A stretch of 64,000 nt of DNA from Parcubacteria group bacterium Gr01-1014_3. Its GTDB lineage: Bacteria > Patescibacteriota > Minisyncoccia > UBA6257 > WO2-44-18. The translations under genes were made by a program, and so were the position numbers. The first letter of the stretch is position 1, and every line of letters begins with the position of its first letter. The DNA lies in the NCBI GenBank assembly GCA_007376445.1, contig VMGF01000002.1, forward strand, positions 13,673 to 77,672, read 5' to 3'. Positions 13,525 through 50,067 of this stretch are shown here, one piece after another. The notes below the pieces were generated by a model. That model did no database searches and had not been told where the DNA came from. It was given only the letters and a program-made list of their open reading frames with translations.

Positions 13525-13616
13525 TGAATTAGGTTAATTTATTCGACCGACAGGATCCTTCGCTGCGTTCAGGATGACAGGATGGTAGTTGTCAAAATGG
13601 TATAATAAATGTATAA

Positions 13617-23477: not shown

Positions 23478-23502
23478 TTCCAGCCTCTGATATAATAGAC
23501 CT

Positions 23503-27013: not shown

Positions 27014-27805
27014 GTGGACTATTCATTCCTCAAAAACAGGCAAAAAGCACGCCGTAGGCTTAGGATAAAGCTATATTTATGGATTGGGGCAGCTGTTTTA
27101 GTCCTGGTTTTAGGCGTTTGGGCTTTTTTAAAAGCGCCTTTTTTTATTATTAAAGAAATTGAGGTTACGGGCCTTACTAAGCTTACCAGCGAGGATGTTT
27201 TGGACGAACTCCAGGCGTCTATTTTACAAACCGGATGGGCCAGGGCACTAGGCGTACGGCACTTCGCGGCTTGGCCGACTCAAATGCAAATACCTAATCC
27301 ATTGATCGCGAAAGTTGATATAGCGAAGCACTATTTGAATAATCGCCTTGAAATTAAAGTTCAGGAGCAGGAATATTTTTCGGTTTGGTGCCGTATTAGC
27401 CAGAATAATGGAACTAACTGCTTCTGGTTAAATGAAAATGGTGTCACGGTGGCTCCCGCGCCTGATACTGAAGGCGCATTGATCTACCGGGTCGTTGAAA
27501 AAAACGAAAATGAAGCCGCGCTTGGTGAAGAAATCATTAATCAGCGCGAATGGCCAAATATTAAAAATATTTTAGAAAGTTTGTCAGATCTTTCGTTAAA
27601 AATTAAAGAGTTTGTTTATAATGGGCGTCTGCAAGAACTGATTGCTTACGGCACGGCCGGAGAAAAGCTGATTTTTAGCACTCGCTTAAACTACGGCGAA
27701 AAAGTCTTAGGCTACATCAAAACCTCCGCCGAGAAAGGGGATTTGAAGCGTTCCGAATATCTCGATCTGACGGTGGAGAATAGGATTTATTTAAAACCTA
27801 GATAA
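27014..27805 (+). CDS. ftsQ: cell-division protein FtsQ/DivIB-like (TM + POTRA)
   Basis: N-terminal TM followed by IKEIEVTGLTKLTSEDVLDEL POTRA-like start. Size ~260 aa. Confidence 0.55.
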   Translation: MDYSFLKNRQKARRRLRIKLYLWIGAAVLVLVLGVWAFLKAPFFIIKEIEVTGLTKLTSEDVLDELQASILQTGWARALGVRHFAAWPTQMQIPNPLIAKVDIAKHYLNNRLEIKVQEQEYFSVWCRISQNNGTNCFWLNENGVTVAPAPDTEGALIYRVVEKNENEAALGEEIINQREWPNIKNILESLSDLSLKIKEFVYNGRLQELIAYGTAGEKLIFSTRLNYGEKVLGYIKTSAEKGDLKRSEYLDLTVENRIYLKPR

Positions 27806-30282: not shown

Positions 30283-32298
30283 TCACAGATCCTTTTGATT
30301 ATCCTTTGTTTGTTCGTATCCCTTTTTTATAGAGTCTTCCACATCTTTCTCGAACTTTTCTGATGCTAGATAGGCCTCTCGGTCGGATTTCGACTTCTCC
30401 AGTCCGAGCTGATCAACGAGCGAGATAATATCTTTCTTCAGCCAGTCGTCGTAGGTGTTTTTCAGCAGGTCTTCCGCGACCTTCCGAGCCTGGTCGTCAT
30501 TGTTGCGACCAATCTCCTTGAACCAGCCTGCGATCCGTAGACGAGCTTCGGCGCAGTAATAATCGGCGAGATGGATGAAGCGATGCTTGTTGGGATTCTG
30601 CTTCAGCGCGTCAACCATATTCAAATCGTTCGCGTAGAAGCAGGCAGCGGTCATGGCGTAAAGTTCGGTAGCGATATTCGCCAGCCGCATAAAGAGCAGC
30701 TGCTTGTGCGGAAGCTTCGCGCGGTATTTGGCCGAAGACCAGATGACGGTTTTGGCTAGCTTACGAGCCATGCCGTCCACATAATCGAGGTGTCGCTTTA
30801 GTGTTCTCGTGTGAATCTGTGTATCGGTCTTGCGGCGGAAGGTGAGTCGGAATAGATCCCAGCCGAAGCCAAGAGCCGCGCCAAACTTCTTAAGCCACTG
30901 TCCCTTTTCCAGGAACACTTCGCCGCGCTTCTTATATTCATCGATACCTTCACGGATGATCCACTGACTCAAAATTTCAGACGAGCCTTCGAATATCCGA
31001 TTCGGGCGGAAATTCCGGTGAATCGCTTCGGTCGGAATCGGCGGTTCCCCGCGATTCTCCAGCGACTTCGCCGTTTCATACCCGCGTCCGCCGCGCATCT
31101 GCATCAGGTCGTCCACGATCTTCCAACCGCGTTCAGAGGCGTACACCTTGCAGGCAGCCGCTTCCATCCGGGCGTCGAGCTTATGGTCCACGCGATAAGT
31201 CGCGTACCAGCACATCGCTTCCATCGCGAAGGAATTAGCGAGACCGGGAGCGAGCATACCACTTCCAACTGCTTCGTGCTTTCCGATCTGCTTGCCCCAC
31301 TGACGACGTTCATTGCCCCACCACTTGCCGATCAGCAAGCACTGGCGGGAGATCGCCGCGCAGGATCCGGCCACCGCGAGACGTCCTGTATTCAGGGCCT
31401 CCATCGCAATCTTAAATCCGAGACCTTCCTTTTCACCAACGAGCTGTTCCTTGGGAACGTGCACGTTATTGTAGGTGATCTCGCTATTGTACATACCGCG
31501 AAGTCCTTCGAACTGACAACGCTCCCACGAAAGGCCTTCGCTGTTAGTCGGGATAATGAAGGCGCTGAAACAGGGCTTGTAGCCTTTTTCGTGAATTTCT
31601 TCAGGTTTATCGACGGTTTTCACGATCAGGCAGATGAGAGGGGAGACGCACTCCGAATCATTCTTCGCGCCGTTGGTCATCCACCACTTCTTTCCGGTGA
31701 TATGATAGCCGGTCACAACGCCGGATTCATCCTTTATCCGTACCGCGACTGTCTCCATATTTGCCGGATCGGATCCGGCACCGGATTCTGTGAATGAAAA
31801 TCCGGAGGGTGAGCTCGCGACCTTCGGCAAATACTTTTTCTTCTGTTCGTCCGTGCCGTAACCCTTGAGCGGCCATCCAAGACCGATAGAGTTCGAGGCC
31901 GAAAGCAGGGCCACTAAGGCGCCACAATAACTGGCAGTCAGCGACATTAGGCGCATGTAATCGCTCTGCGAAAGATTCTTGCCGCCGTATTCGACGGGGA
32001 TCTTCAGGCCAAAAAAGCCCTCTTCACAAAGCCACTCCATCGCGCGATTGGAAATACGATCGGTATCTTCGACGTTCTGCGGGTCAACTTCGGTCATCAA
32101 GAAATGACGAAGCTTCGCCAGCATCTTCTCGCCTTCTCGCTTTTCATCCGCGGTTTCGAAATTCTGACAAGAAGCAAAAAGTTCAAAGTTCGCTCTGCCG
32201 CGGAAAAGATCCGCCATAAAACCATCGTGCCGCTTCTTATCGCGCTGCTCTTCAGCGATCATTACGCCCTGTCCGAGCTTGGACATGTCCATGGCCAT
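30283..32298 (-). CDS. acyl-CoA dehydrogenase, long form with C-terminal extension
   Basis: ACAD N-, middle and C-terminal domains. Active-site region GGRGYETAK…IFEGSSEIL. ~670 aa. Confidence 0.85.
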   Translation of the reverse strand: MAMDMSKLGQGVMIAEEQRDKKRHDGFMADLFRGRANFELFASCQNFETADEKREGEKMLAKLRHFLMTEVDPQNVEDTDRISNRAMEWLCEEGFFGLKIPVEYGGKNLSQSDYMRLMSLTASYCGALVALLSASNSIGLGWPLKGYGTDEQKKKYLPKVASSPSGFSFTESGAGSDPANMETVAVRIKDESGVVTGYHITGKKWWMTNGAKNDSECVSPLICLIVKTVDKPEEIHEKGYKPCFSAFIIPTNSEGLSWERCQFEGLRGMYNSEITYNNVHVPKEQLVGEKEGLGFKIAMEALNTGRLAVAGSCAAISRQCLLIGKWWGNERRQWGKQIGKHEAVGSGMLAPGLANSFAMEAMCWYATYRVDHKLDARMEAAACKVYASERGWKIVDDLMQMRGGRGYETAKSLENRGEPPIPTEAIHRNFRPNRIFEGSSEILSQWIIREGIDEYKKRGEVFLEKGQWLKKFGAALGFGWDLFRLTFRRKTDTQIHTRTLKRHLDYVDGMARKLAKTVIWSSAKYRAKLPHKQLLFMRLANIATELYAMTAACFYANDLNMVDALKQNPNKHRFIHLADYYCAEARLRIAGWFKEIGRNNDDQARKVAEDLLKNTYDDWLKKDIISLVDQLGLEKSKSDREAYLASEKFEKDVEDSIKKGYEQTKDNQKDL

Positions 32299-32436
32299 AG
32301 GCCATCTCCTTAAAAGAATTTGTTAAATAACCGAGTAAATTGTACAACAAAAATTTAACTTTGACAATATTCCGAAAGGGTTGCTTTTATGGCCATACGG
32401 TCATAAAAGCAACCGGGGGAAATAAACATAGAGAAT

Positions 32437-32468
32437 AAAAAAATCCTGTTAGGTTTTCTAACAGGATT
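32437..32468 (-). terminator. rho-independent terminator after the hydratase/dehydrogenase gene
   Basis: On the minus strand, aatcctgttagaaaacctaacaggatt is followed by TTTTTTT. Confidence 0.65.
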
Positions 32469-32503
32469 TATTGGCCACTAGTGGCTAGTCGCTAACTACT
32501 ATT

Positions 32504-34543
32504 TTAATGTTCAGCTCGGCCGATGACTCCTCGGCGATTGGGCATCATGCCACCACCGAGGATCAGGCTCAAGTCGATCATGTCAATTGATGCAATGCCA
32601 TTTTCATATATATCCATCGCCTCAAGCCACATCTTTGACAAAATAGTTTCTCTAATCGCGACTATTTCGCCGTGTAGTGAATGTTTCTTTTTTGGCATAA
32701 TATCGAGTCGCTTTGCGAATTCATAGTTAGGCTTCACGGGCTTGCCGTTCTTCCAAATATAGAATCCCTTGCCGGTCTTCGTTCCAAGCGTGGACTTATC
32801 ATCCGCGATCTTGAAGTCTTTCAGATCAGGCAAGCTCTTCGGATAAGCTGCCTGCATCATCTTCATTACATGAGCTCCCGTATCAAAGCCAATCAGGTCG
32901 AGGGTCTTAAACGGCCCCATCATCATGCCACACATCTCGAACGCCTGATCTAACATCCAAAGATTCGGTCTACTCGGCCAATAACTGACATTAAAGATGC
33001 TTTGCATCAGATACTGCGTCATCACGCGATTCACCAGAAGGCCGACGCATTCTTTATTCAGAACCACCGGCGTTTTGCCCATCGCTCGCGTCAGATTTAA
33101 AACCTTCGCGATAATTTCAGGATTCGTCTGCTTGATGCCGGCGATCTCTACCAGGTCCATTTTGTGGGCCGGATTGAAGAAGTGCATCGCGCAGAAATTT
33201 TCCGGATGCAATAACACCGACGCGATCTCGCTGGGAAGAAGCGAAGAGGTGTTGCTAACAAGTATCGCGCCAGGGCGAGTCAATTCTTCAAGCTTCGTGA
33301 ACAGTTTATGCTTTTCCGCCATATCTTCCACAATCGCTTCGATCACTATATCGCAACGACTCAGAAGGCTATGGAAAGTCTCGCCGTAACCGACCGTCAG
33401 CCGGTTGCGTGTTTCTTCTGCCACTCCCTTAATCATTTTTCCCTTCTTAACTTCACGCGCCAGCTCGTCTTCAATGAAGCGGACTGCTTTGTGAATCGAG
33501 GGGACATAGGTGTCGTGGAGATAAACTTGCTTGTTATGAGCGGTCAGCGCGGCATAAGCGATGGTGCTACCCATCACGCCCGCGCCGATAACTCCAACGA
33601 CATCCAGAGGATAAACCTTAGCCTCAAGTGGCGTCGCTTTCCTCGCGTCCTTACGGACAAAGAAAAGATCGATCAGATTTTTCGCTTCGGGGGTATTGGC
33701 CGCCTTGACGAAAAGATCGCTTTCCTCGTTCAGTCCCCGAGACAATGACTTAGAGCTAGCGCAAACCGCTTCAAGAGCAAGTAGCGGAGCAGGGTAAACG
33801 CCCTTCGTCGCTTTCAATGTCGCTTTGCGAGCCATTGAACAAACCAGCTTCTTTCCAAAAGGTAACCGTTCTAAGAATGAGACCTTACGCTTCACCGGAA
33901 GGAAAAAGTCCAGTATAACTGTTCCGAAATCGAGCTCTTCGATTGCTAATGCTTCCCATTTATCAACCAGAGAGTCGGCTAAGCCATACTGCTTCGCTTC
34001 CTTCGCCGAAAGCTTTTTGCCTCCGACGATCACCTTGATAGCATTTTGCATGCCAACGAGGCGCGGGAGAATTTGAGTTCCGCCAAAGCCAGGAATAATT
34101 CCCAGCTGGGTTTCAGGAAGTCCCAAACGAGTCTTCGGATGATCAATCACGAACCGGTAATGGCAAGCCATAGCCAGTTCCAAACCACCGCCCAGACACT
34201 CGCCAGCAATCAATGCGATGATCGGATAAGGAGCTTGCCGGATCTTCATCAGAATCTCATGCGCGCGATTTAGGAGTTGTTTGAGGTTAGAGGGATCATT
34301 AACGATCTCGCGTATCTCATCCACGTCCATACCGGCGCAAAAACTTTCAAACTTACTGGACCGGATAACCATTACTCTGGGATGATCCGTTAAGTTCACA
34401 TCCAGAACCTGATTTAGTTCCTCAAGAGCTTGCTTAGAAAGCGTATTTTGTTTTGCCTCCGGACCGCAATCAAGAGAAAGAATCCGTAGTCCTTCGCGTA
34501 TCGAAGTTCGGTATTGCCATTTCGTCAGCTTTAAGTCTTCCAT
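32504..34543 (-). CDS. fatty-acid oxidation alpha subunit: enoyl-CoA hydratase + 3-hydroxyacyl-CoA dehydrogenase (FadB/FadJ-like)
   Basis: Crotonase fold at the N-terminus. NAD-binding VIGAGVMGSTIAYA. 3HCDH C-terminal repeats. Confidence 0.9.
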   Translation of the reverse strand: MEDLKLTKWQYRTSIREGLRILSLDCGPEAKQNTLSKQALEELNQVLDVNLTDHPRVMVIRSSKFESFCAGMDVDEIREIVNDPSNLKQLLNRAHEILMKIRQAPYPIIALIAGECLGGGLELAMACHYRFVIDHPKTRLGLPETQLGIIPGFGGTQILPRLVGMQNAIKVIVGGKKLSAKEAKQYGLADSLVDKWEALAIEELDFGTVILDFFLPVKRKVSFLERLPFGKKLVCSMARKATLKATKGVYPAPLLALEAVCASSKSLSRGLNEESDLFVKAANTPEAKNLIDLFFVRKDARKATPLEAKVYPLDVVGVIGAGVMGSTIAYAALTAHNKQVYLHDTYVPSIHKAVRFIEDELAREVKKGKMIKGVAEETRNRLTVGYGETFHSLLSRCDIVIEAIVEDMAEKHKLFTKLEELTRPGAILVSNTSSLLPSEIASVLLHPENFCAMHFFNPAHKMDLVEIAGIKQTNPEIIAKVLNLTRAMGKTPVVLNKECVGLLVNRVMTQYLMQSIFNVSYWPSRPNLWMLDQAFEMCGMMMGPFKTLDLIGFDTGAHVMKMMQAAYPKSLPDLKDFKIADDKSTLGTKTGKGFYIWKNGKPVKPNYEFAKRLDIMPKKKHSLHGEIVAIRETILSKMWLEAMDIYENGIASIDMIDLSLILGGGMMPNRRGVIGRAEH

Positions 34544-35813
34544 TACTCACCCCTTTCCAGGCAAGCGGCGACACCCTGGCCGCCGCCAACACAAAGAGTA
34601 ACCAATCCGCTCGTCGCGCCGGTAAGCTCAAGTTCCTTGGCGCAGGTAAGCACCAGGCGAGCGCCACTCGCGGAAATCGGATGGCCAAGCGCGATCGCGC
34701 CGCCGTTCCGGTTAACTTTTTCCGGCGAAAGCCGGCCGAAGTTATCCTTAACCAATTCAAATTCTTTCTGCTGGGCCAAAACGACCGCGGCAAAAGCTTC
34801 GTTGGTCTCGATCACATCAATATCGTCGAGAGTGCTCCAGTCATGGCTAAAGATTTGCTTGATAGCCTGAACCGGGCCAAGGCCCATTCTTTCGGGCACA
34901 CATCCACCAATCGAAGAAAATCTTGAGTACATAGTCGCCAGGAGCGGCCAGCCATTTTTCTTGGCCAGCTCTTCGTTAACCACCATCAGCGCGACCGCGC
35001 CGTCCGTGATCTGAGAAGAATTTCCTGGCGTAACTGTGCCGCCCTTGTGGAGAGGTCGCAGTTTACTAAGAGCCGACAGATTCTGGTCGAAACGAATTCC
35101 GTTGTCCTGATCGATACCGCGGAACGGTACGATCTCGTGCTTCAGACGGCCGGAAAGCGTTGCCGCCTTCGCGCGCCGCTGAGATTCGAGAGCGAACAAG
35201 TCCTGCTCTTCGCGAGAAATCTTGTACTCCTCGGCAATCTGATCCGCGATCTCGTCCATACCCAGTTTACAAACCGGATCGGTCAGACCGATCTTGATCG
35301 ACCACTCCGGCTTATGCGGCATCATTTTCATTTTTGTCCACTCCTTCATTAAAGAAGGAAGGCGGCGCCACATCGGCGCCTTCTTGCGCGAAACCTCGTA
35401 AAGTTTCGCGAATTGGGCTCGCTGTTGGCGATTGTAGACCGCGACGTAGTCCGACATCACTTCTGATGCCACCACTAGGATGCATTTGTACAAACCAAGC
35501 TCAACATTCTTTACCGCGTCGAGCACGGCGTGAAGCCCGCTCCCGCAGTTAATGTTAACCGTCCAGGCCGGAATTCTTGGGTCGAGTCCTGCCTTGAGCA
35601 AGATCACTCGCGCCAGATTCGAGCCGTCCGGGTGAAGCACCTGATTGCCAATATTGGCGCCAACCACGCAATCACAAGATTCCTTCAGCTTCGGATAACG
35701 CTTAAAAAGCTCGCCAACCGGCGTCAAAGCCATCTCGCTCGCGGAAAGATCAGGAATTGTTCCCGCCTTCAAAAACGGCGTCCGCACTCCATCAACGATC
35801 ACTGCCTTGTTCA
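34543..35813 (-). CDS. acetyl-CoA C-acyltransferase (thiolase, FadA-like)
   Basis: GTG start at complement 35811-35813 after AAGGAG (MNKAVIVDGVRTPF). Active-site Cys context NINCGSGL. C-terminal GGGQGVA. TAATG overlap with the next gene. Confidence 0.85.
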
Positions 35814-35935
35814 CAAGGCGTCTCCTTAAATAGGTTTTTAAAATGTTAAAAAACCAGATAAATAGTACTAAAAATAACCCCTTTTGGCAAACCGGGAAAA
35901 TAGTGATATATTGTACTCGGTTCTTTAAGAGGTGA

Positions 35936-36427
35936 ATGATGACCGACCCAAAGCTTCGTGAGCTTGAGAAGAAGGTTAATGAACGCAAGAAGCTCGTTGA
36001 ACGGATCATGGTTTTTGTGGAAAAAGTCCTTGTAAAGCATGGCAAGGAGACATACCGCTATGAGGGGTCTTGCCATACCAACACGAAATACGAATTAAAA
36101 GCAGGGAAGTTTTTACTAAAGGGTAGTTTTGGCCAAACCCAAATGGGAGGTAATAATGTTTACATTCTTTATAAAGATAAAGAGGTTTTCCAGGTTTACT
36201 ATCAAGCCAACCTGGATGAATGTCGGGTTGATGTTTTTGAAAATGGAGCTTGGTTACCAGCCTTCCAGAAGTTGATGCATAATTTCAAAGAGGTGATTGC
36301 GAGAGTTAATAAGAAACAGAAAGACAGCGCCAGTAAATTAGAAAATAAATCGTTGATTGAAGAAAAGCGCAAGCAACTTCTAATCAAAGCTAAGCGACTT
36401 GGCTTGCCTACCGACGGGCAAGCCTGA
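35936..36427 (+). CDS. hypothetical protein
   Basis: RBS GAGGTG. Own terminator at 36427-36452. No domain recognised. Confidence 0.4.
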   Translation: MMTDPKLRELEKKVNERKKLVERIMVFVEKVLVKHGKETYRYEGSCHTNTKYELKAGKFLLKGSFGQTQMGGNNVYILYKDKEVFQVYYQANLDECRVDVFENGAWLPAFQKLMHNFKEVIARVNKKQKDSASKLENKSLIEEKRKQLLIKAKRLGLPTDGQA

Positions 36428-36499
36428 CCGCGGAATAATCCGCGGTTTTTTTATTTCAAAAATAAAACCGCCTACAAAAAGTAGGCGGTTAATTTTTTT
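36427..36499. terminator. pair of hairpin terminators (gaccgcggaataatccgcggtttttt and aaccgcctacaaaaagtaggcggtt) between convergent genes
   Basis: Two GC stems, each followed by T-runs; the second has T-runs on both strands. Confidence 0.65.
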
Positions 36500-36833
36500 A
36501 TTCCTTAATTCCGAAAAGTGTTTTAAATTCTTCTTCCGTTAAACCAAGCTTCTGCAGAATTTCTTTCTTCTTCCTTTTTATTTCAGCCGCTTTCTGCTCG
36601 GCGACAAGCTTCGCCTTGGCATCATCAGCCTCCGCTTTTTCCTTGGTCTTCTTATTTTCCTTATATTCGTCCCACCACTTCTTCAACCCCGGAGAAAACA
36701 GCTTTTCAAGTTTAAGTAATTCCAATTGTTCACAGAGAGGCGCTAGCAGATCATGATATTCCTTAGACAACTCCCGACACGCTTGGCCGACCGCGCGCCG
36801 CTCATTGCTTTCCCGACTAACACCGAAAGCCAT
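36498..36833 (-). CDS. hypothetical protein, Lys/Glu-rich C-terminal half
   Basis: Preceded by a gccgaaaggc hairpin plus AAGGAG leader. No domain recognised. Confidence 0.4.
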   Translation of the reverse strand: MAFGVSRESNERRAVGQACRELSKEYHDLLAPLCEQLELLKLEKLFSPGLKKWWDEYKENKKTKEKAEADDAKAKLVAEQKAAEIKRKKKEILQKLGLTEEEFKTLFGIKE

Positions 36834-36861
36834 ACCTGCTCCTTTCTGCCTTTCGGCTCAG

Positions 36862-37613
36862 TTAAGAACTAAACTCCGATTTGATGTAGTTTTCGAGAGT
36901 GGTCAAATCAAAGCTCGCGATTAATCTACATTCCTTACCATCCCAGCCGATAACTAAGGGGTCTATATTTAGACGACCCTCTTCCCAGGCGGCTTCTGTG
37001 ACGACAAAAACTTTATGCACATGCCATTTAGTATGTCCATTCGTTGTACACTCAGTAAAATCAAGTTGTTTAAATTCTTCTCTCGCAGTAAGAATTTTTT
37101 CACGAATTTCATATGGAATAAGCCCCTTGAATTCCATTGCCAAGTTCAATCCTCTACTTTTAGAGGGTACTATTTGAACTAAACCATCCAACATAGCCTC
37201 GCGGATAGCGTATGGCAGTCCCATGGGATATCTGATATAACTACTATTCTCTATTTGGCATACTGCTTCATAGTCATGTTCGGCGAATGGATCAAAAATC
37301 GCCAAACTTGGGAATCCCTTTTTATTTCTCCACTTAAAAACATGCGTGGAAAGCTTAGTGGGATACTTGAGTGAAATCTTTTGTTTAATTAGCTTCGGCA
37401 GGCGATTATCTATGGATTCAATACTCTTTCTGATTTTTGTTTTAGCGTGGAATTCAATTGCTAATAGCTGGTCGAGCTTCCTCTCTAAAAATTGCTTTTC
37501 TTTTATCAACTTATCGATTTCATCAATAACTTCTTCTAACTTCTCTTTCTGACTAACTTCTTTTGAGCAATACTTCAATGCCTCTTTAATAGGATTAGTA
37601 GTAATTTCGGTCA
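36862..37613 (-). CDS. hypothetical protein (~250 aa), N-terminal coiled coil
   Basis: Start trimmed to ATG at complement 37611-37613 after a gccgaaaggcagaagggagc leader (MTEITTNPIKE…). Confidence 0.4.
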
Positions 37614-37917
37614 TCGCTAGCTCCCTTCTGCCTTTCGGCATGTAAATGAACTTGCAATAAAATACCATTTTATATGGATTACGTCAATTCAAAGAAAACG
37701 CCCATCTCCACAAGGGGACAGGCGTTTTCTAAGAATAAAATATTCACAACGAGAAATTATCTGTCCCTAATGGGTTGGATTTAGCACCTTACGGTAAAGC
37801 AGGTTGCTGGAGCTTCATAGGGCCAAGACCCTCGGCTCACTCTTGATAATATTTCGTTGTCAAAGTTCAAGTGCTTATTACAACCGCTATCCTATCAGAT
37901 TGGTTTCCTTAGGTCAA

Positions 37918-37945
37918 TTGACAAACTTAGTTTATATGATATAAT
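37918..37945 (+). promoter_or_regulatory. near-consensus sigma70-type promoter (TTGACA-N16-TATAAT)
   Basis: ttgacaaacttagtttatatgatataat lies 45 nt upstream of the ATG at 37990. Confidence 0.5.
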
Positions 37946-37989
37946 ACACGGAGTTCAAAAAAAGAATCCAAAACACAGGAGGTGACGCG

Positions 37990-38358
37990 ATGGAATTATT
38001 CGAGAGACTTTGGGAAGAAATGCAGGAAGCATTTCGCCGTCGTAATCTCTTTGCGGCGATCAAGGTTTTGAGGTTTTCCACGCCAATAACGATGGGGTTA
38101 AAGGAAACCAAGAATTATGTCGAGCGCTATTGGAATATGGATGGTGGACTAGAGGCCATGAAAGCCGACCTCATGATCCAGCTCGGCATTGAGTCTCCTG
38201 CCACGGAAGAGAAGAAAAGTGTTGAGGAAATCGCTGCCATACTTCAGGGCATAAAGGTCGTACAAGATGAGAACTTCGCTCTGACAGTAAAGAAGGAAGT
38301 TTCCTGGGATCAGATGAACGAGTTTTTTGCCAAAGCAGCTCGAGAATTGGGATTCTAG
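37990..38358 (+). CDS. hypothetical protein with ribosomal L7/L12 C-terminal-domain-like motif
   Basis: AAIKVLRFSTPITMGLKETKNYVE matches the L7/L12 CTD signature (vIKvvReiTGLGLKEAKDLVd). RBS AGGAGGTG. Confidence 0.4.
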   Translation: MELFERLWEEMQEAFRRRNLFAAIKVLRFSTPITMGLKETKNYVERYWNMDGGLEAMKADLMIQLGIESPATEEKKSVEEIAAILQGIKVVQDENFALTVKKEVSWDQMNEFFAKAARELGF

Positions 38359-38423
38359 CATCCAGCGGCGAAGATTAATCTTCGCCGCTTTTATTTTTCT
38401 AATTTTTTGGTATAATCAAGCGA

Positions 38424-39494
38424 ATGAAATTAAGTATCGGCATCGTGGGGTTGCCAAACGTCGGTAAGTCCACCTTGTTTAAAATCCTCACGAAAAACGA
38501 GGTAAATATCGCCAATTATCCATTCTGCACCATTGATCCGAATGTGGGTGTGGTTAGCGTACCCGATGAACGGCTGGATCAGCTCGCCAAGATGAGTAAG
38601 TCGGCTAAGATCATCCCAGCGATCGTGGAATTTTATGATATTGCCGGTCTGGTCAAAGGCGCTAACAAAGGCGAAGGTTTAGGTAATCAGTTTTTAACTC
38701 ACATCCGCGAAACCGACGCGATCGTAATGGTACTCCGGGTATTTAAAAATGAAGAAATCATCCACGTGGAAAATTCCGTGGATCCGATCCGCGATATGGA
38801 AATCATCAACACCGAGCTAGCCCTGAAGGACTTGGAATCGGTGGAAAAACTTTATAAAAAAGCGGAAGGCGAGTCTAAGATCGGCGGTACGCCGGCGCAA
38901 AAACAAGCAATTAAAGATTTTGAAGCCGTCAAAAAAATTAAATCAGTCCTGGAAGCCGGTCAAAATTTAAATACTCCGGAATTTGCCGAAGCCTTGGAGA
39001 ACGAAAAAGTTGCCGCGTTAAATTTGCTCTCCGGAAAAAAGCAGATCTATTTACTCAACGGAAAACTCGAAGATGTCTCCGAAGAATTAAAAAAGAAGAT
39101 CGCGGAGAGGCTTGCCCGCAGTAGCTTCAGCGAAGGCGGGGGAGGATATGTGATTATGGATTTATCTATAGCCACCGATATACCGGAGCTAGTTAAAAAG
39201 GCCTACGAAGTGCTCGGCCTAATCAGCTTCTTTACCACGGGCGAAGATGAGACCCGCGCCTGGACTATTAAGAAAAACAGCAAAGCTTCGCAAGCCGCTG
39301 GCGCGATCCATACTGATTTTGAAAAGAAATTCATCCGCGCGGAAGTAGTTAACTGGCAAAAATTACTCGAAGCCCATTCGGCGAGCTCAGGGCAAGCCGG
39401 TTGGTCCGCCGCCAAACAAAAAGGCTGGATGCGTTTAGAGGGTAAGGACTATATCGTACAGGATGGCGATGTTATGGAGATTAGGCATGGCTAG
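38424..39494 (+). CDS. ychF: ribosome-binding ATPase YchF (Obg family)
   Basis: GIVGLPNVGKSTLF. TGS-like C-terminus. ~356 aa. Confidence 0.9.
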   Translation: MKLSIGIVGLPNVGKSTLFKILTKNEVNIANYPFCTIDPNVGVVSVPDERLDQLAKMSKSAKIIPAIVEFYDIAGLVKGANKGEGLGNQFLTHIRETDAIVMVLRVFKNEEIIHVENSVDPIRDMEIINTELALKDLESVEKLYKKAEGESKIGGTPAQKQAIKDFEAVKKIKSVLEAGQNLNTPEFAEALENEKVAALNLLSGKKQIYLLNGKLEDVSEELKKKIAERLARSSFSEGGGGYVIMDLSIATDIPELVKKAYEVLGLISFFTTGEDETRAWTIKKNSKASQAAGAIHTDFEKKFIRAEVVNWQKLLEAHSASSGQAGWSAAKQKGWMRLEGKDYIVQDGDVMEIRHG

Positions 39495-40093: not shown

Positions 40094-40296
40094 CTGAAAC
40101 CTCCAAAAAAAGTTCTGCCTGTATTATAGACTAGAACTGTTATTCTGTCAAGCGCCATTCTTACGGCCTAATTCGTGCAAATATGTCCTACGTCTTATGG
40201 TCTAATTCCCGCCAGAGGCGGGCAAGCGTACGAATGGGCGAATAAGGAGGGGATAGTGGAATTTCGACTTTACGAAGTTTCGATTATAATGAATAC

Positions 40297-40701
40297 ATGC
40301 CCAAAGAAGTTTCACCAGAACATTTAGCGATCGAACAGGATATCGCGGCTATATCGGCCGATCTTAAAGCCCGCCGCGGCGGGCAAGCTCGCAAAAACGC
40401 GGAGCAAGGAATATCAAAAGAAGATATGAAGTCCGCCGTGAGCACGAGGATTGAAAGTTCACCCGCCCCTGGCGCTAGTTCGTCCTCACAAAGCTCGGCC
40501 TCCACGCTTCCTTCATACACTCAAAACGCTCCGGAAGAGGTGCGTCTCAAAATAGAGAAGCTTATTGATCTCGCCTGGCATAAAGGAATCTGGCGGGCGG
40601 TTCAGGAAGCTAAGAACAGCGACCCGCTGACCTTGGACGCGTTGCACGACGCGTTAACGGATAAGATCTACGAAGAATTCAAAAAGCGGGGATTACTATG
40701 A
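40297..40701 (+). CDS. hypothetical protein with Ser/Ala-rich low-complexity centre
   Basis: 134-aa ORF. No domain recognised. Confidence 0.35.
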   Translation: MPKEVSPEHLAIEQDIAAISADLKARRGGQARKNAEQGISKEDMKSAVSTRIESSPAPGASSSSQSSASTLPSYTQNAPEEVRLKIEKLIDLAWHKGIWRAVQEAKNSDPLTLDALHDALTDKIYEEFKKRGLL

Positions 40702-40744: not shown

Positions 40745-43075
40745 ATGTATAACGCACTTTTAATTTCTTTCGGAATTCCGCTGGTAGTTTTTCTGATCGG
40801 AATCGGCGTAGCCGTGGCGGTTAAAAATCACCGGAAAAGATTTCTTGGAGTTTTAAATTTAAAACCCCTGATTGTCACGCTACGTCAGAAAACCGATGGT
40901 GATAAAAAAGATCCACTCGCTGAAATCAGCCTTTCCAGTCAGCTTTTTAGTTTACTGACCAACCTCAAAAATCCCTTCTCACTCGAACTTGCCGTGCATA
41001 ATGTTGGCGAAGACATTCATTTTTATATTTCCGTGCCGGAAGATTCGATCGATTCGGTGAGCCGTCAAATTCAAGGACTATGGTCCGAGGCGGATGTGCG
41101 GAAAGCGGGGGATTACACTATTTTTAATTCCGGCGGAGTGGCCCGCGTGGCATTTTTAAAACAAAAGAATCATTACGCTCTTCCGGTCCGGACTTATACT
41201 GAAGCTGGTCTGGACACCTTTTTAACTATCCTGAATAATTTTTCCAAGGTAGAGATGGTAGGGGAGGGTTTGGCTCTCCAGGTAGTGGCGAAACCGGCTC
41301 AATCCAGCACGGTAAAAAATATAGACAGGATGATCATGGGGCTTAAAAAAGGCGTGAAGTTATCCGATGCCTTGAATGGCAAAGTTTCACTGCCAACGCC
41401 GAAAAAAGATGAAGTAGCGCCACAAATCATTGTTGATGAAGAAGCAGTCAAAAATCTGATCTCCAAGATCTCTAAACCGCTTTTTGAGGTGAATGTGCGC
41501 CTAGTCGCGTCCGCTATGTCGGCTTATCGCTCAGAGGAACTTTTAAATAACTTAAGCGCCGCCTTTTCTCAGTTTACCGCCCCAAACCGGAATGAATTCA
41601 AGGTTAATGAACCGGCCAATCCTTCCAAGCTGATTTTTAAATATATATTCCGCCAGTTCGATTCCTCAGAATCGATGACTCTAGGCGCCGATGAATTAGC
41701 GAGCATATTTCATTTCCCAACTTCCACCACCGAAGTTCCGAAGGTTAAATGGCTTAAATCTAAAGAGGCCCCACCGCCAGCCGTCTTGCCGGAAAATGGC
41801 GTGGTGATCGGCGAAAGCCGCTTCCGAGGCGAAGTTAAAACCGTCAGAATAACCGACGAAGACCGCCGGCGCCATGTTTATATCATCGGTCAGACGGGTA
41901 CCGGTAAATCCACCCTGCTTATCGAAATGGCCGCTTCCGATATCGCGGCTGGAAAAGGTTTGGCCGTCATCGATCCACACGGCGATCTGATTGATTCTAT
42001 CCTTGCCCACATCCCAAAGAATCGGGTGGATGATGTGGTGGTATTTGATCCGGGTGATACCGACCGGCCACTTGGTTTGAATATGCTTGAGTACAACCCA
42101 GCGCGACCGGAGGAGAAAACTTTTATCGTCAACGAGATGCAGAGTATTTTCAATAGACTTTTCACCGCTGAAACCATGGGCCCGATGTTTGAACAGTACA
42201 TGCGGAACGCGCTTTTGCTTTTAATGGATGACCCAAATGAAAAAGCGACCTTAATGGAAATTCCCCGCGTGTTTACCGATGCCGAATACCGGAAACGGCT
42301 GATCGCCAAGGCGAAAAATCCGGCGGTGATTGATTTCTGGGAAAAGGAAGCCGTGAAAGCCGGTGGTGATGCTTCGCTCGCGAATATGACGCCTTACATC
42401 ACTTCGAAATTCAACAATTTCACATCCAACGACTACATCCGGCCAATCATTGGCCAGCCGGTGTCAGCCTTTAATTTCCGGAAGATCATGGATGAAGGCA
42501 AAATCCTTTTAGTTAATCTTTCGAAGGGCAAGATAGGGGATATCAACTCCAATCTTCTGGGCATGGTAATCGTTGGTAAAATTCTGATGGCCGCGCTGTC
42601 CCGCGTGGATCTGCCACAAGAGCAGAGAAAGGACTTTAACCTGTACATAGATGAGTTCCAGAATTTCACCACGGATTCTATTTCCACGATTCTTTCCGAG
42701 GCCCGGAAATATCGTCTGAACTTGATAATCGCGCACCAATTTATCGGCCAATTAAATGAAAAAATCCGGAACGCGGTGTTTGGCAACGTAGGGGCGCAGA
42801 TAGTCTTCCGGGTAGGGGCCGAAGATGCTGATTTTCTCATAAAACAGTTCGAGCCGGTCTTTTCCAAGCAGGATCTGCTTAATATTGACAATTTTAATAG
42901 TTATGTTAAAATGCTCGTGAACGGTCAGACAACCAAGCCGTTCAACATAGCGCTATTGGCGCCTAATAAGGGAATCCCCGGTTTAAGCTCAAAATTAAAG
43001 GAATTATCGAGATTAAGATATGGTAAGCAAAGAGCGGAAGTAGAGGGGGATATCCTGGGGCGTTTAAGGGGCTAA
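40745..43075 (+). CDS. membrane-anchored P-loop ATPase of the FtsK/HerA superfamily (VirD4/TraG/DUF87-like)
   Basis: N-terminal TM. Walker A YIIGQTGTGKSTLL. DPHGDL. Walker B-like LYIDEFQNF followed by ARKYRLNLIIAHQFIGQL. ~370-aa N-terminal region of unknown function. Confidence 0.55.
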   Translation: MYNALLISFGIPLVVFLIGIGVAVAVKNHRKRFLGVLNLKPLIVTLRQKTDGDKKDPLAEISLSSQLFSLLTNLKNPFSLELAVHNVGEDIHFYISVPEDSIDSVSRQIQGLWSEADVRKAGDYTIFNSGGVARVAFLKQKNHYALPVRTYTEAGLDTFLTILNNFSKVEMVGEGLALQVVAKPAQSSTVKNIDRMIMGLKKGVKLSDALNGKVSLPTPKKDEVAPQIIVDEEAVKNLISKISKPLFEVNVRLVASAMSAYRSEELLNNLSAAFSQFTAPNRNEFKVNEPANPSKLIFKYIFRQFDSSESMTLGADELASIFHFPTSTTEVPKVKWLKSKEAPPPAVLPENGVVIGESRFRGEVKTVRITDEDRRRHVYIIGQTGTGKSTLLIEMAASDIAAGKGLAVIDPHGDLIDSILAHIPKNRVDDVVVFDPGDTDRPLGLNMLEYNPARPEEKTFIVNEMQSIFNRLFTAETMGPMFEQYMRNALLLLMDDPNEKATLMEIPRVFTDAEYRKRLIAKAKNPAVIDFWEKEAVKAGGDASLANMTPYITSKFNNFTSNDYIRPIIGQPVSAFNFRKIMDEGKILLVNLSKGKIGDINSNLLGMVIVGKILMAALSRVDLPQEQRKDFNLYIDEFQNFTTDSISTILSEARKYRLNLIIAHQFIGQLNEKIRNAVFGNVGAQIVFRVGAEDADFLIKQFEPVFSKQDLLNIDNFNSYVKMLVNGQTTKPFNIALLAPNKGIPGLSSKLKELSRLRYGKQRAEVEGDILGRLRG

Positions 43076-46960: not shown

Positions 46961-47023
46961 CCAGGAAGTGAAAATTCGACTGTTTTGGACTCATTTCCGG
47001 ATGGTCGAATTTCTACTTCCTGG
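46961..47023. repeat. conserved 20-bp-stem hairpin element, copy R2
   Basis: ccaggaagtgaaaattcgac…gtcgaatttctacttcctgg. Both arms and the cttgccagg/cctggcttg flanks are near-identical to R1. Confidence 0.6.
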
Positions 47024-47090
47024 CTTGAATCCCGATGTAAACCAGAGTAAGATTATCTTTATCCGTTCCTTGAAAATAAAGGAGAAACAT

Positions 47091-48884
47091 ATGAAGGAAG
47101 AGAAAATCATCTCTTTCGGCGAGTATTTGGATCGCGTTAAAAAGGATCCGCAAATCGTTACGACGGCGCATCAGCTAATCTATAACGCCATTATGAAGAA
47201 GGGTGTCGAGAAGGTGTTCGGAGAGCTTTACGGCATAGATTCGGTGATTGAAGAGGTCGTGGACTACTTCGGCAAGGCTAGTTTGGGTGGCGGACGATCG
47301 AAACGATTCTTGTTCTTGCTTGGCCCTCCGAGTTCTGGAAAGAGCACGATCGCGCGAGCGATTGCCTGGGCTATTGATGATGAGCCAATCTATTGCATTG
47401 AAGGCTGTCCAATCCGTGATCAGCCTATTTATCTTTTGAAGCGGCGTGATCGTTTGGCGCTGGCCAAAGAACTTGGCATCTATCTCCCAGAAGGGGATAT
47501 CTGCCCGGTTTGCCGGAAGCGGCTAAAAACCGAGTTCGACTATGATTACACGAAGTTCAAGGTTAAGATCGATAAAATTTCTGTCCGATCGTTCAATGGT
47601 TTTGCCTCGGTAGATCCCACGGATCCGATGTCATTTGATAAAGCGCGGCTGATCGGTTCGGTAACTCTTGGCGAAAAAGAAGGTAATCCGGACAACTTTG
47701 AGTTGGACGGCGCGATTCTTCGCGGTAATCGTGGCGCGCTTGAATTAGTGGAAATCTTAAAGAATCTGACTGAAGCTCTGTACGTTCTTATCGAAGCAAC
47801 CCAGAGTAAGACTATCGAATCTCCCGCGGGCCGCACTGAAAAGATCTATGTCGATCTCGCGATCATCAGCCATTCCAATGAAGCGGAGTGGGTAAAGTTT
47901 TATTCCGATAAAAAGAACGAAGCCCTGCTGGATCGCATGCACGTGATCAATGTGCCGCATAATATCCGGCTCGACGATCAGATTAGAGTTCTGAAGGGTA
48001 TGAGTATCGCGACACCACGCCAGAGCCTTAATTATCATGTTAATCCGCTTAGTCTTAAGTTGGTCGCGGCCTTTACGGTCATGACGCGCTTACAGATTGG
48101 CGGTGAAACTGATGCTGATGAAGCGTTAGCGCGGATGCTGGCCTACAACGGCTTGATTGCCGAAGGGTCGGATGCAACACCCGCGACGCTGATGAAGCAA
48201 TATCCTCGCGATGGCTGGCAAGGCATTTCTAACCGGGATGGCGCGGAAATCTTGGAAATGTCCCTGTCTATGAAACAGTCGGATAAAGAGATGTGCATTG
48301 ATCCGATCTCTGTCCTGGATGCAATTGATAAGTTCATCTCACAAGACACGAATAAGAAATTTTCAGTTAAAGAAAAGGCTAATTGGCCGCCTCTTGCTAC
48401 CATCCTCAAAAAGGACTTTGCGCGGGAAGCCGCCAAGCAATTCTGCACGATCGCTGAAGAATCTACCCAGCTTTGCACCGATACTTTTGAAAAGTATCTG
48501 GAAGCTATCCGTAATTTGCTGAATCGCGTTGAGCTGAATGATCAGCAAAAAGACCTGGTAACTTATGTCGAGAACGGCTGGCGCGATAAAAGTGACGACG
48601 AAAAAAACGATAAACGCTCTGATATCAGTCGCCATATCCACTCATTCACGGAAGCCTCCGAGGATATGAAAACCGGTGTTTATAACTATATCAACAGCAC
48701 CGTCATTATTGATGTCATCAGCCGGCTCCTCTTGAGCGAGCAGGAGCTGACCAGTTTAGATAAACAGAACGACTGGCTCAATCTGGATCAGTTCGTAAAA
48801 GAAAAGTTCGAAAAGCTGAACTATTGTCCGAAGTGCCTGCGCCGAGTAGCGCATTGGCTCAAGGATAATCAGAAGTTTCCTTAA
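47091..48884 (+). CDS. prkA: PrkA-family serine protein kinase (AAA ATPase + kinase-like)
   Basis: Start trimmed to ATG at 47091 after AAGGAG. P-loop LLGPPSSGKST. C-terminal PrkA_C region. Followed by yeaH- and spoVR-like genes. Confidence 0.8.
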   Translation: MKEEKIISFGEYLDRVKKDPQIVTTAHQLIYNAIMKKGVEKVFGELYGIDSVIEEVVDYFGKASLGGGRSKRFLFLLGPPSSGKSTIARAIAWAIDDEPIYCIEGCPIRDQPIYLLKRRDRLALAKELGIYLPEGDICPVCRKRLKTEFDYDYTKFKVKIDKISVRSFNGFASVDPTDPMSFDKARLIGSVTLGEKEGNPDNFELDGAILRGNRGALELVEILKNLTEALYVLIEATQSKTIESPAGRTEKIYVDLAIISHSNEAEWVKFYSDKKNEALLDRMHVINVPHNIRLDDQIRVLKGMSIATPRQSLNYHVNPLSLKLVAAFTVMTRLQIGGETDADEALARMLAYNGLIAEGSDATPATLMKQYPRDGWQGISNRDGAEILEMSLSMKQSDKEMCIDPISVLDAIDKFISQDTNKKFSVKEKANWPPLATILKKDFAREAAKQFCTIAEESTQLCTDTFEKYLEAIRNLLNRVELNDQQKDLVTYVENGWRDKSDDEKNDKRSDISRHIHSFTEASEDMKTGVYNYINSTVIIDVISRLLLSEQELTSLDKQNDWLNLDQFVKEKFEKLNYCPKCLRRVAHWLKDNQKFP

Positions 48885-48963
48885 TTATATAACCCCGATT
48901 TACATCGGGGTTATTTTTGTTAAGATTATGGCAGTCTTTTCATAACTAAATAAGAGGTGCTAA

Positions 48964-50067
48964 ATGACTCTCAAAGACAGCCGTAACGACAAAGTTACGC
49001 CGCAAACAAGCTGGGATATTCATCGCCATCAGTCCAAATTAAGACGCGCGCTACGTGAACAGATCGAGGAGATCATTCTAAGCCAACCGGTGATAACTGG
49101 TAATCCCGATAAAGTCATTCAGATACCAGTCCGATCGTTACAAGAATTTACTTTTCAATTCAAAGACGGCGGGGGAGCGGGTAAGTTCGTGGAAGGCATT
49201 CCCAAAAAAGCCGGCACTAAGGCTGGTCAGGAAATGATCGAAGCGGACATTCGTCTACAACTCGCGATCGAACTGATGATGGAAGATCTGGAGATCCTCG
49301 ACTTATTCCGCGCTATTGAAGAGGGAGAGCGGGTCCCTAGAAGCCGCACACGGCCATGGGGAAAGAAACATTATGGTAACCGGGCTCGTCTGATGAAGCG
49401 GGAAACCGTAAAAAATAAATTGGCCAGAGTACGAGCGACCAAGTCTCAATCCAAGGCATTCAAAGCGGAAGATAGCCGTTATCGGCACTTCAAAGAAACA
49501 CCAGACGGCGATTACCGCGCGGTGATATTCTATATTATGGATATTTCGGGCTCCATGGATGGCCGAAAACTCTATCTTTGCCGGGCGCTTAATTACTGCA
49601 TTAACCAGTATCTCAGGCAGATATATAGCGAAGTGCAGGCGCGATTTATCGTCCATGAAGCGAAGGCCGAAGAAAAGACTGAGGAAGAATTTTTCCGGAC
49701 AAAATCGAATGGCGGCACGCAACTATCCACCGGGACCGAAGAAGCCCTAAAAATCATCGATCGGGATTATTCTAATGGGGATTGGGACATTTATGCCTGG
49801 CATGCCACGGATGGCGATAATTCTTCGCAAGATAACCCCATGTTCGCGAAAGAACTTGGTAAACTATCAGAAAAAGCCCGCGCTATCATGCTTTGTGAAA
49901 CTGATACATCGATCGGATCGGCTAGTCAGTCGGATGCCCTGAAAGAACTGCGCGAAAAGGTTAACAACTTTTTTGTGTTCTTATTGGACCGGAAAGAAGG
50001 CATCCGCGACACCTTAAAAGGTATGCTGGAAGTCCTTAAAGAAAGGAGCGGGGTCAATGAAAGATAA
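48964..50067 (+). CDS. YeaH/YhbH (DUF444, vWA-like) protein
   Basis: FYIMDISGSMDG metal-ion-site-like motif. Conserved position between prkA and spoVR. Confidence 0.75.
   Translation: MTLKDSRNDKVTPQTSWDIHRHQSKLRRALREQIEEIILSQPVITGNPDKVIQIPVRSLQEFTFQFKDGGGAGKFVEGIPKKAGTKAGQEMIEADIRLQLAIELMMEDLEILDLFRAIEEGERVPRSRTRPWGKKHYGNRARLMKRETVKNKLARVRATKSQSKAFKAEDSRYRHFKETPDGDYRAVIFYIMDISGSMDGRKLYLCRALNYCINQYLRQIYSEVQARFIVHEAKAEEKTEEEFFRTKSNGGTQLSTGTEEALKIIDRDYSNGDWDIYAWHATDGDNSSQDNPMFAKELGKLSEKARAIMLCETDTSIGSASQSDALKELREKVNNFFVFLLDRKEGIRDTLKGMLEVLKERSGVNER

Follow-up and report, generated by a model that had tools for sequence, protein, structure and literature searches.

Organisation of the locus

Four small genes lie between a set of β-oxidation genes (thiolase, a FadB-like enzyme and acyl-CoA dehydrogenase) and the gene for YchF in the genome of Parcubacteria group bacterium Gr01-1014_3. 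The window analysed here is a stretch of 64 kb from a parent contig of 242,713 bp, and positions are counted from its first nucleotide. A second sample holds a contig of 7.9 kb with identical DNA. The two genes on the minus strand encode proteins of 250 residues (gene 1) and 111 residues (gene 2). With a probability of about 0.72, we consider that they form one bicistronic operon behind a transcription-terminating SAM-I (S-box) riboswitch (SAM, S-adenosylmethionine), and that the operon carries a duplicated initiation cassette. Along the minus strand, the order is a promoter-like site, the aptamer, a terminator, about 80 nucleotides (nt), gene 1, 28 nt, gene 2 and a terminator. The features are listed in Table 1.

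The location between the β-oxidation genes and ychF had been recognised in a first-pass annotation of this sequence, and is borne out by identification of the flanking enzymes. That annotation treated the four genes as one block, delimited by bidirectional terminators. The block is in fact three independent transcription units. The plus-strand terminators are present and one terminator is two-stranded, but on its left the block is bordered by divergent promoters; the terminators sit between the convergent genes and after the 122-residue gene, where the terminator is predicted by the scan to work on the plus strand only. The range given for gene 2 (36498-36833) is correct, while that for gene 1 (36862-37613) was out of frame and should end at 37614. 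For the 163-residue gene, the second ATG, at 35939, is the more likely start, and is the one called on the identical contig.

The plus-strand gene at 37990 is driven, as had been proposed, by TTGACA-16-TATAAT, which agrees with the consensus at all 12 positions and carries a TG extension. The seemingly empty spacer of 376 nt between this gene and the divergent gene 1 (37614-37990) contains the riboswitch with its terminator, which is the dominant regulatory element of the region and had been overlooked; this riboswitch and a tRNA are the only two Rfam matches across the window. In the same spacer the −35 boxes of the divergent promoters of the riboswitch operon and the 122-residue gene abut, GGTCAA being followed directly by TTGACA (37912-37923). 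Between the thiolase operon and the 163-residue gene, TTGGCA and TTGCCA overlap (35884-35890), giving −35 regions that are common to divergent promoters. Each of these two overlaps could alternatively be an operator for a dimeric regulator.

Table 1 Features of the four-gene region (positions in the window)
Feature	Position	Strand	Basis or remark
Promoter of 163-residue gene, TTGGCA-17-TATATT	35884-35912	+	Promoter scan
163-residue (or 162-residue) gene	35936-36427	+	Separate transcription unit, convergent with the operon and with nothing in common with it
Terminator of 163-residue gene	36426-36447	+	Terminator scan
Bidirectional terminator closing the operon	36466-36490	both	Terminator scan; also a backup for the plus-strand terminator 36426-36447
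Gene 2, 111 residues, Lys/Glu-rich soluble orphan	36498-36833	-	Open reading frame, homologue searches
Leader stem-loop 2, AGUUC-N8-GCCGAAAGGC-AGAAA-GGAGC	36837-36870	-	Repeat search, folding
Gene 1, 250 residues	36862-37614	-	Start supported by Shine-Dalgarno sequence and homologue alignment
Leader stem-loop 1, UUAUUGC-A-AGUUC-N8-GCCGAAAGGC-AGAAG-GGAGCU-A-GCGAUGA	37611-37660	-	Folding compared with shuffles
Promoter-like site after riboswitch terminator, TTGACG-17-TATTTT	37659-37687	-	Promoter scan, 9/12 positions and TG extension
Intrinsic terminator of expression platform	37688-37730	-	Fold, inverted repeat
Antiterminator strand GGGACAGAUAAUUUCU (3' strands of P4 and P1)	37752-37767	-	Folding
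SAM-I (S-box) riboswitch aptamer	37754-37852	-	Rfam RF00162
Candidate promoter of riboswitch transcript, TTGACC-17-TAGGAT	37889-37917	-	9/12 positions and TG extension; weak
122-residue gene unit (promoter 37918-37945, gene 37990-38358, terminator 38364-38389)	37918-38389	+	Promoter and terminator scans, synteny

A SAM-I riboswitch ahead of gene 1

A covariance-model scan matches the minus-strand RNA in the spacer to RF00162 with a score of 69.7 bits, compared to a gathering score of 44.4 (E = 3e-14 for the whole window). The alignment is not truncated, spanning model positions 1-108 of 108, and it contains all of the helices P1-P4, P4 being short (CCC/GGG). The core strings AUCAAGAG, GAGGG...CCCUAUGAAGC, GCAACC and GGUGCUAA agree with the SAM-I consensus, and the pseudoknot partners can be read directly from the sequence, UUGG in the P2 loop being complementary to CCAA in J3/4. 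Pairing of ACAACGA (37854-37860) with UCGUUGU (37746-37752) would make P1 longer. An independent minimum-energy fold of the leader recovers P1-P4 together with a terminator of about 16 bp, and the whole riboswitch leader is 4.5 standard deviations more stable than shuffled sequences. The four-way junction, the K-turn-type P2 (GA...UGAAG) and the pseudoknot between the P2 loop and J3/4 are thus all found, as in known SAM-I leaders such as those of Bacillus subtilis yitJ and metI. We regard this RNA as almost certainly a SAM-I aptamer, and predict that it binds SAM.

The expression platform is equally typical of the class. The two arms of the terminator (37714-37730 and 37693-37709) are followed by the U-run UUUUCUUUG. 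The 5' arm can alternatively pair with GGGACAGAUAAUUUCU on the 3' side of the aptamer, as 7 + 5 bp, so that terminator and antiterminator are mutually exclusive, in the manner of the classic S-box transcriptional OFF switch. For the nascent RNA, in which the 3' arm has not yet been made, the calculated energies are −35.7 kcal/mol for the aptamer-closed form and −35.2 kcal/mol for the antiterminator; this difference of 0.5 kcal/mol is the near balance that is required if the ligand is to decide the outcome.

The proposed mechanism is therefore the standard one. With SAM bound, P1 and P4 would keep GGGACAGAUAAUUUCU within the aptamer, the hairpin at 37693-37730 would form, and RNA polymerase would stop. 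At low SAM, GGGACAGAUAAUUUCU would pair with the terminator 5' arm, and the resulting antiterminator would permit read-through into the 250-residue and 111-residue genes. That the riboswitch governs read-through into both genes in this way is, on the predicted geometry, likely. The candidate promoter of the riboswitch transcript is weak: 11 matches of its quality were found, compared to 5.9 ± 2.2 in shuffles.

The element departs from the usual S-box in two respects. It occurs in a Parcubacterium, within the Candidate Phyla Radiation (CPR), and the genes that it would control encode two soluble proteins without a link to methionine, cysteine or SAM metabolism or transport. Typical members of the class, although this is not strictly defining, are followed by genes for sulfur, methionine or SAM metabolism or transport, and such genes are not found here; even the sub-threshold Pfam and NCBIfam matches of both products include none to methionine, cysteine or SAM families. 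A search of one literature library found no paper joining SAM riboswitches with CPR, Patescibacteria or Parcubacteria, and a 2015 paper on Parcubacteria genomes names riboswitches only in noting the absence of a flavin mononucleotide (FMN) riboswitch. The riboswitch is a bona fide SAM-I member, with an atypical regulon and an unusual host.

A repeated hairpin and Shine-Dalgarno leader

The 20-nt sequence GCCGAAAGGCAGAARGGAGC is found in two copies on the minus strand, at 36838-36857, before gene 2, and at 37620-37639, before gene 1. The first-pass annotation was right to single out this repeated leader: 100 shuffles contained a mean of 0.01 matches, none of them having two or more, and there is no further copy in the window, even when three mismatches are allowed. 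A repeat search returns the pair as a 20-nt direct repeat with 95% identity and a spacing of 782 nt, flanking gene 1. Each copy ends 4-5 nt before the ATG. It consists of a small GAAA-capped hairpin (GCC-GAAA-GGC), which is weak (3-4 bp, −3.4 to −5.0 kcal/mol), followed by an extended Shine-Dalgarno (SD) sequence of 9 nt, AGAARGGAG. This is complementary to the canonical 3' tail of 16S rRNA, CUCCUUUCU, with a G-U pair in copy 1. The SD half of the leader, AGAAAGGAGC, is also found in front of an unrelated gene at 50057, while the hairpin half is private within the window to the two genes.

The similarity between the two leaders extends beyond the repeat itself. In both, AGUUC is located exactly 8 nt upstream of the hairpin (37648-37652 and 36866-36870), the two 8-nt spacers being unrelated in sequence. 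The chance of finding a block of at least 5 nt at the same offset in two 15-nt segments of this genome is about 0.011. The shared offset of AGUUC points to common descent, and we think it probable that the two leaders derive from one duplicated initiation cassette. Since the repeats flank gene 1, assembly of the operon by copying of the initiation region is suggested; recombination would have copied this region when the second gene joined the operon.

AGUUC(UU) is able to pair with (AG)GAGC in both leaders, and each 34-nt leader element folds alike, with an energy of −9.8 kcal/mol and the SD paired. Leader 1 is further closed by pairing of UUAUUGC with GCGAUGA, which covers the AUG of gene 1; its fold has an energy of −16.5 kcal/mol (z = −3.07), and none of 200 shuffles is as stable. 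In leader 2, the masking strand AGUUCUUAA is formed by the last two sense codons and the stop codon of gene 1 (AGU UCU UAA). In this model AGUUC would hide the SD in both leaders by pairing with GGAGC, and because the masking strand of leader 2 coincides with the end of gene 1, its opening by a ribosome that terminates there would expose the SD of gene 2. The predicted folds lead us to suggest, tentatively, that the leaders may mask their SDs and that gene 2 may be translationally coupled to gene 1.

Translational coupling through SD masking is known for the coat and replicase genes of phage MS2 and for the IF3-L35-L20 operon of E. coli. The present case is similar in that the closing codons of gene 1 are able to base-pair with the SD of gene 2 (AGUUCUU with AGGAGC), but differs from these established systems in being predicted only, with a 6-bp helix that includes two G-U pairs and is not distinctive in its wider context. 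RNA thermometers of the FourU and ROSE types, and 5' stabiliser stem-loops next to the SD, form another class for comparison. As in FourU/ROSE thermometers, a short wobble-containing helix covers the SD and a small capped hairpin adjoins it on the 5' side; the predicted stability of the leader element goes from −9.8 kcal/mol at 37 °C to between −16 and −18 kcal/mol at 10 °C. The leaders, whose folds are predicted, have no sequence relationship to those elements and no Rfam match.

A strong SD is in itself unusual in this window. An SD-like motif is present in only 14 of the 61 genes. In 18 of the 61, a −10-like hexamer ends 4-11 nt upstream of the start codon, an indication from the sequence that leaderless mRNAs are widespread. 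Examples are at 38407-38426, 13600-13619, 23489-23505, 27715-27730 (minus strand) and 40281-40299, and the ribosomal-protein genes of the window have A-rich upstream regions without an SD. Given that most genes of the window lack an SD, a gene placed behind a leader of 270 nt, or an internal cistron, would need an explicit strong SD.

Gene 1 belongs to an undescribed protein family

None of the four proteins reaches a curated cut-off in Pfam or NCBIfam, and PHROGs and PADLOC give isolated marginal matches only. All four lack transmembrane segments, the products of genes 1 and 2 being predicted to be soluble. A word-index search with the 250-residue protein recovered only the protein itself and one relative with 33% identity. 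An exhaustive profile search, by contrast, recovered 659 cluster representatives at E<=1e-3, 254 of them at E<=1e-10. There is thus a large family, which is seen only by the exhaustive search and is missed by word-index searching. Its members are mostly from Patescibacteria (Saccharibacteria, Paceibacterota and other Patescibacteria metagenome-assembled genomes) and from metagenomes.

The conserved motifs are spread over about 165 C-terminal residues: W-R-x3-G-x-P, F-x-G-x-IP...KI..A...F, AE, DPLV(V/I)GWDG and FD.T..E. In an alignment of 146 sequences, the near-invariant columns are W95, R96, G100, P102, G164, P167, I174, F181, E207, D218, P219, G223, F235, T238 and E241, and the 250-residue protein carries the motifs that mark this 'DPLVVGWDG' family. 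The AlphaFold2 model made from the 146 sequences has a predicted local distance difference test score (pLDDT) of 86.7 and a predicted template modelling score (pTM) of 0.84; an earlier model made from 2 sequences had a pLDDT of 46 and was useless. The protein is predicted to consist of a long N-terminal helical hairpin (about residues 23-83), followed by an α/β domain that ends in the DPLV(V/I)GWDG...FD.T..E region. There is no consistent Pfam family among the 146 members, and a profile search of PDB sequences gave coiled-coil noise only. No described family, PDB relative or fold match was found in Pfam, PDB or BFVD. The family is therefore undescribed, and gene 1 encodes a genuine conserved protein.

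NCBI annotates gene 1 as a protein of 268 residues, starting at an upstream in-frame ATG at 37668, which has no SD and is inside the riboswitch leader. This start is disfavoured, as both the homologue alignment and the SD favour the 250-residue start. The protein has an insertion of 18 residues, LDFTECTTNGHTKWHVH, containing Cys and His (residues 182-199; 37020-37073), which is private to it: the insertion is missing from nine other aligned family members and from the relative in a separate alignment.

Homologues of gene 1 are usually free-standing, with their own promoter, SD and terminator. They often adjoin tRNA genes, and one is found between secY and adk in a ribosomal-protein/secY cluster. 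Their positions vary from locus to locus (L001, 6001-6837; L003, L011, L012/L013 and L032), and in each of these the gene stands alone, with a strong promoter and a terminator. No conserved neighbour gene was found across the loci of gene 1 relatives, and in no locus encoding a relative of the 250-residue protein is there a homologue of the 163-, 111- or 122-residue protein. In some of the homologue leaders the SD is buried in a hairpin (L005/L020, 2840-2926; L012, 2332-2417; L032, 2190-2276); in L005, AGCCUCUCUUU pairs with AAAGAGAGAGGCU immediately 5' of the AUG (z = −2.2). In the leaders of L001, L003, L004 and L029 the SD is not buried in a hairpin.

Gene 2 and the plus-strand genes

The 111-residue protein matches only itself among 5.8 billion clusters in a word-index search. 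The possibility that it, or the 163-residue protein, is a relative of the 250-residue family was examined by hhalign against the family profile, which shows no relation. The best of the PHROGs and PADLOC matches is that of the 163-residue protein to a PADLOC type II methyltransferase model, which is marginal (E = 0.00097 over 55 residues). PADLOC gives nothing beyond this, and an anti-phage defence system is not supported.

For the 122-residue protein, the word-index search gave itself and one relative, with 53% identity. This relative is on a 1.3-kb contig (L223), where it is directly upstream of ychF. Promoter (TTGACA-16-TACAAT), terminator and a ychF start of the leaderless type are arranged as in the window; a different gene occupies the divergent position, and no riboswitch operon adjoins the relative. 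In a related contig without the operon, the 122-residue gene therefore keeps its place beside ychF, which speaks against a four-gene module. A resemblance of the 122-residue protein to the motif of the L7/L12 C-terminal domain, over the stretch AAIKVLRFSTPITMGLKETKNYVE (residues 19-48), has a pairwise E of 0.002, and was discarded because neither PDB nor Pfam supports it.

Comparison with phage and plasmid sequences

The four genes had been suggested to derive from a phage or a plasmid. Searches with tblastn found no match for any of the four proteins among 50,697 phage records, and none for the 250- and 163-residue proteins, the two tested, among 72,556 plasmids. No PHROG family or BFVD fold match supports a phage origin, and no integrase, transposase or tRNA was seen at the borders of the block among the open reading frames of the window or in the Rfam scan. 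The sole exception to these negatives is that relatives of the 250-residue domain are found in three IMG/VR contigs. One of these (L106) is a GC-rich, genuine phage contig, in which a gene for a 181-residue member of the family (2510-3055) lies between genes for NinB/Orf and an HNH endonuclease. This member has the globular domain only, without the N-terminal helical hairpin, and is related to the family with an hhalign probability of 99.9%. It shows that the globular domain exists alone, and outside Patescibacteria. A phage or plasmid origin of the block is unsupported.

The 20-mer presents a different picture. An identical sequence is found in 72 IMG/VR contigs (L034-L105) of roughly 40-120 kb, all from one gut-phage lineage. 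It is located 4-6 nt before the ATG of a gene for a protein of roughly 160 residues, upstream of chaperone-like and tape-measure-like genes; the protein is probably the major tail protein. In this lineage (roughly 80 kb), as in the window, the 20-mer has the same distance to the ATG and a sequence 5' of it is predicted to cover the SD: a pyrimidine run, made up of the 3' arm and U-tract of the preceding terminator, would base-pair with the extended SD (−16.6 kcal/mol, z = −2.5; for example L035, 8185-8245). The likeness ends at 20 nt; neither the encoded protein nor the flanking sequence is related, and the host environment is unrelated as well. In another member of the lineage (L111, 790-850), the corresponding element is GCUGAAAAGC, in which both sides of the stem are changed and the hairpin is kept.

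Control 20-mers with the stem flipped or broken, and the SD half kept, had no viral matches. A relaxed scan for GAAA-N3-AGAAAGGAGC gave at least 120 loci; outside the phage lineage, hairpin-forming flanks were not enriched among the matches listed (6 of 76, compared to about 4 expected), and a GNRA hairpin beside the SD was therefore rejected as a general phage design. The number of independent matches expected for the 20-mer, allowing for its common SD second half, is roughly 0.1-1 by our own estimate. Its occurrence in the phages is compatible with chance or convergence, and is not evidence of origin. The 20-mer is, however, not a private marker of the operon, since a probable phage structural gene uses, or tolerates, it as its initiation region. 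Within the window, the complete leader does not precede many unrelated genes, as a generic SD context might be expected to do, yet the identical sequence precedes this unrelated viral one.

Other features of the window

The β-oxidation set (acyl-CoA dehydrogenase, FadB-like hydratase/dehydrogenase and thiolase) is complete, and occupies 30283-35814. Its GC content is 0.51, compared to about 0.45 elsewhere, and at least the acyl-CoA dehydrogenase and thiolase genes have clear SDs; the set looks horizontally acquired. At 46968-51358 there is a PrkA-DUF444-SpoVR trio, equivalent to yeaG-yeaH-ycgB and associated with starvation or sporulation, of which the DUF444 and SpoVR genes are SD-led. One would not expect this trio in a CPR genome, which is reduced. 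A gene for a 776-residue VirD4/TraD-like coupling ATPase (T4SS-DNA_transf, DUF87, TrwB) is found at 40745-43075, about 2.4 kb past ychF.

Discussion

A number of observations weigh against an operon controlled by SAM through the riboswitch, with its duplicated leaders. Transcription from the promoter-like site at 37659-37687, beyond the terminator, could escape the switch, and this is the main reason to doubt read-through control. No SAM riboswitch or other Rfam regulatory RNA, only tRNAs, was found at the 34 loci in which relatives of gene 1 are encoded, and the association of the riboswitch with this family is seen in one genome, in two samples with identical DNA. By Pfam and NCBIfam, neither gene encodes a recognisable methionine, cysteine or SAM protein. 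As for the leaders, the hairpin itself has only 3-4 bp, the fold of leader 2 does not stand out once more of the surrounding sequence is included (z = −0.2), and random 14-nt upstream segments of this genome mask the SD at −9.8 kcal/mol or lower in 16-22% of trials. The 9-nt match between SD and anti-SD presumes that this organism has the canonical 16S tail.

The first of these observations leads to an alternative in which the riboswitch is a relic, or the source of a terminated small RNA that acts in trans, the genes being transcribed mainly from 37659-37687 independently of SAM. Terminated riboswitch RNAs acting in trans have reportedly been described in Listeria (SreA and SreB). The site just past the terminator carries a TG extension and matches at 9 of 12 positions, neither of the genes behind it resembles a known member of the SAM regulon, and homologues elsewhere are free-standing with their own promoters and without a riboswitch, all of which would fit. 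However, 9/12 matches are frequent by chance, as the comparison with shuffles for the candidate riboswitch promoter shows, gene 1 is the first gene after the aptamer, and a decaying element would not keep a full-length, high-scoring aptamer together with an intact and balanced terminator and antiterminator. We consider this alternative unlikely. It is slightly more improbable that the 20-mer is simply a generic or convergent strong initiation context, a mini-hairpin on a maximal SD, which arose by selection instead of duplication and has no role specific to the operon. The phage gene with the identical leader, the two-sided stem change in L111 and the recurrence of the SD half at 50057 are in its favour. 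Against it, the stem controls had no viral matches and hairpin flanks were not enriched among the matches listed, so that the design is not general; a single phage lineage is about what chance would produce; and the copies in the window share AGUUC at the same offset, which indicates common descent.

The least probable explanation, and in our view very improbable, is that of the first-pass annotation, that the four genes are co-regulated or were inherited together as one module, of probable phage or plasmid derivation, which is marked by the leader and bounded by terminators. It is true that all four are SD-led where most genes of the window are not, and that the GC content of the block is the lowest in the window (0.40, compared to about 0.45-0.47). 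The family member beside NinB and HNH genes and the 20-mer in the gut phages could likewise be taken to favour phage derivation. Yet only two of the four genes have the leader, each of the three transcription units has its own promoter and terminator, the loci of the 250-residue relatives contain neither the other three proteins nor a conserved neighbour, and the 122-residue homologue adjoins ychF without the other genes, which largely refutes the module; the phage and plasmid searches, including PHROG, PADLOC and BFVD, are no more favourable. The co-regulation and common origin that had been read from the shared leaders hold for the two cistrons of one operon, with a linked history, and not for all four genes.

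We therefore retain the bicistronic operon behind a SAM-I riboswitch. What it says about the function of the two proteins is less clear, as the association with SAM is non-recurrent, being seen in one genome, which limits any inference on the function of the 250-residue family. It is conceivable, if doubtful, that in this one genome the gene products serve in the response of a host-dependent Parcubacterium to a shortage of SAM or methionine. Equally speculative is the idea that the family as a whole might be part of the SAM and methionine economy of Patescibacteria, as a factor switched on when SAM is depleted (for salvage, acquisition from the host or growth arrest). In a more radical variant, the 250-residue protein could be an effector whose synthesis is triggered by loss of SAM to a phage SAM-degrading enzyme.

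Few regulators reveal their signal from sequence alone, and riboswitches are among them; one that precedes an uncharacterised gene is a well-tried starting point for finding what the gene does. In the present locus, a textbook SAM-I switch occurs in a Parcubacterium, a group in which genomes are very small, known regulators are few and life depends on a host, and it would control a member of a sizeable 'dark matter' protein family together with an orphan gene. The duplicated initiation cassette illustrates how an operon may be extended in a genome where most genes of the window dispense with an SD. If the link is physiological, the 250-residue family would be wanted when SAM is scarce, a proposal that can be tested in vitro without culturing the organism. 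The locus would then be the first experimental handle on a family of hundreds of sequence clusters.

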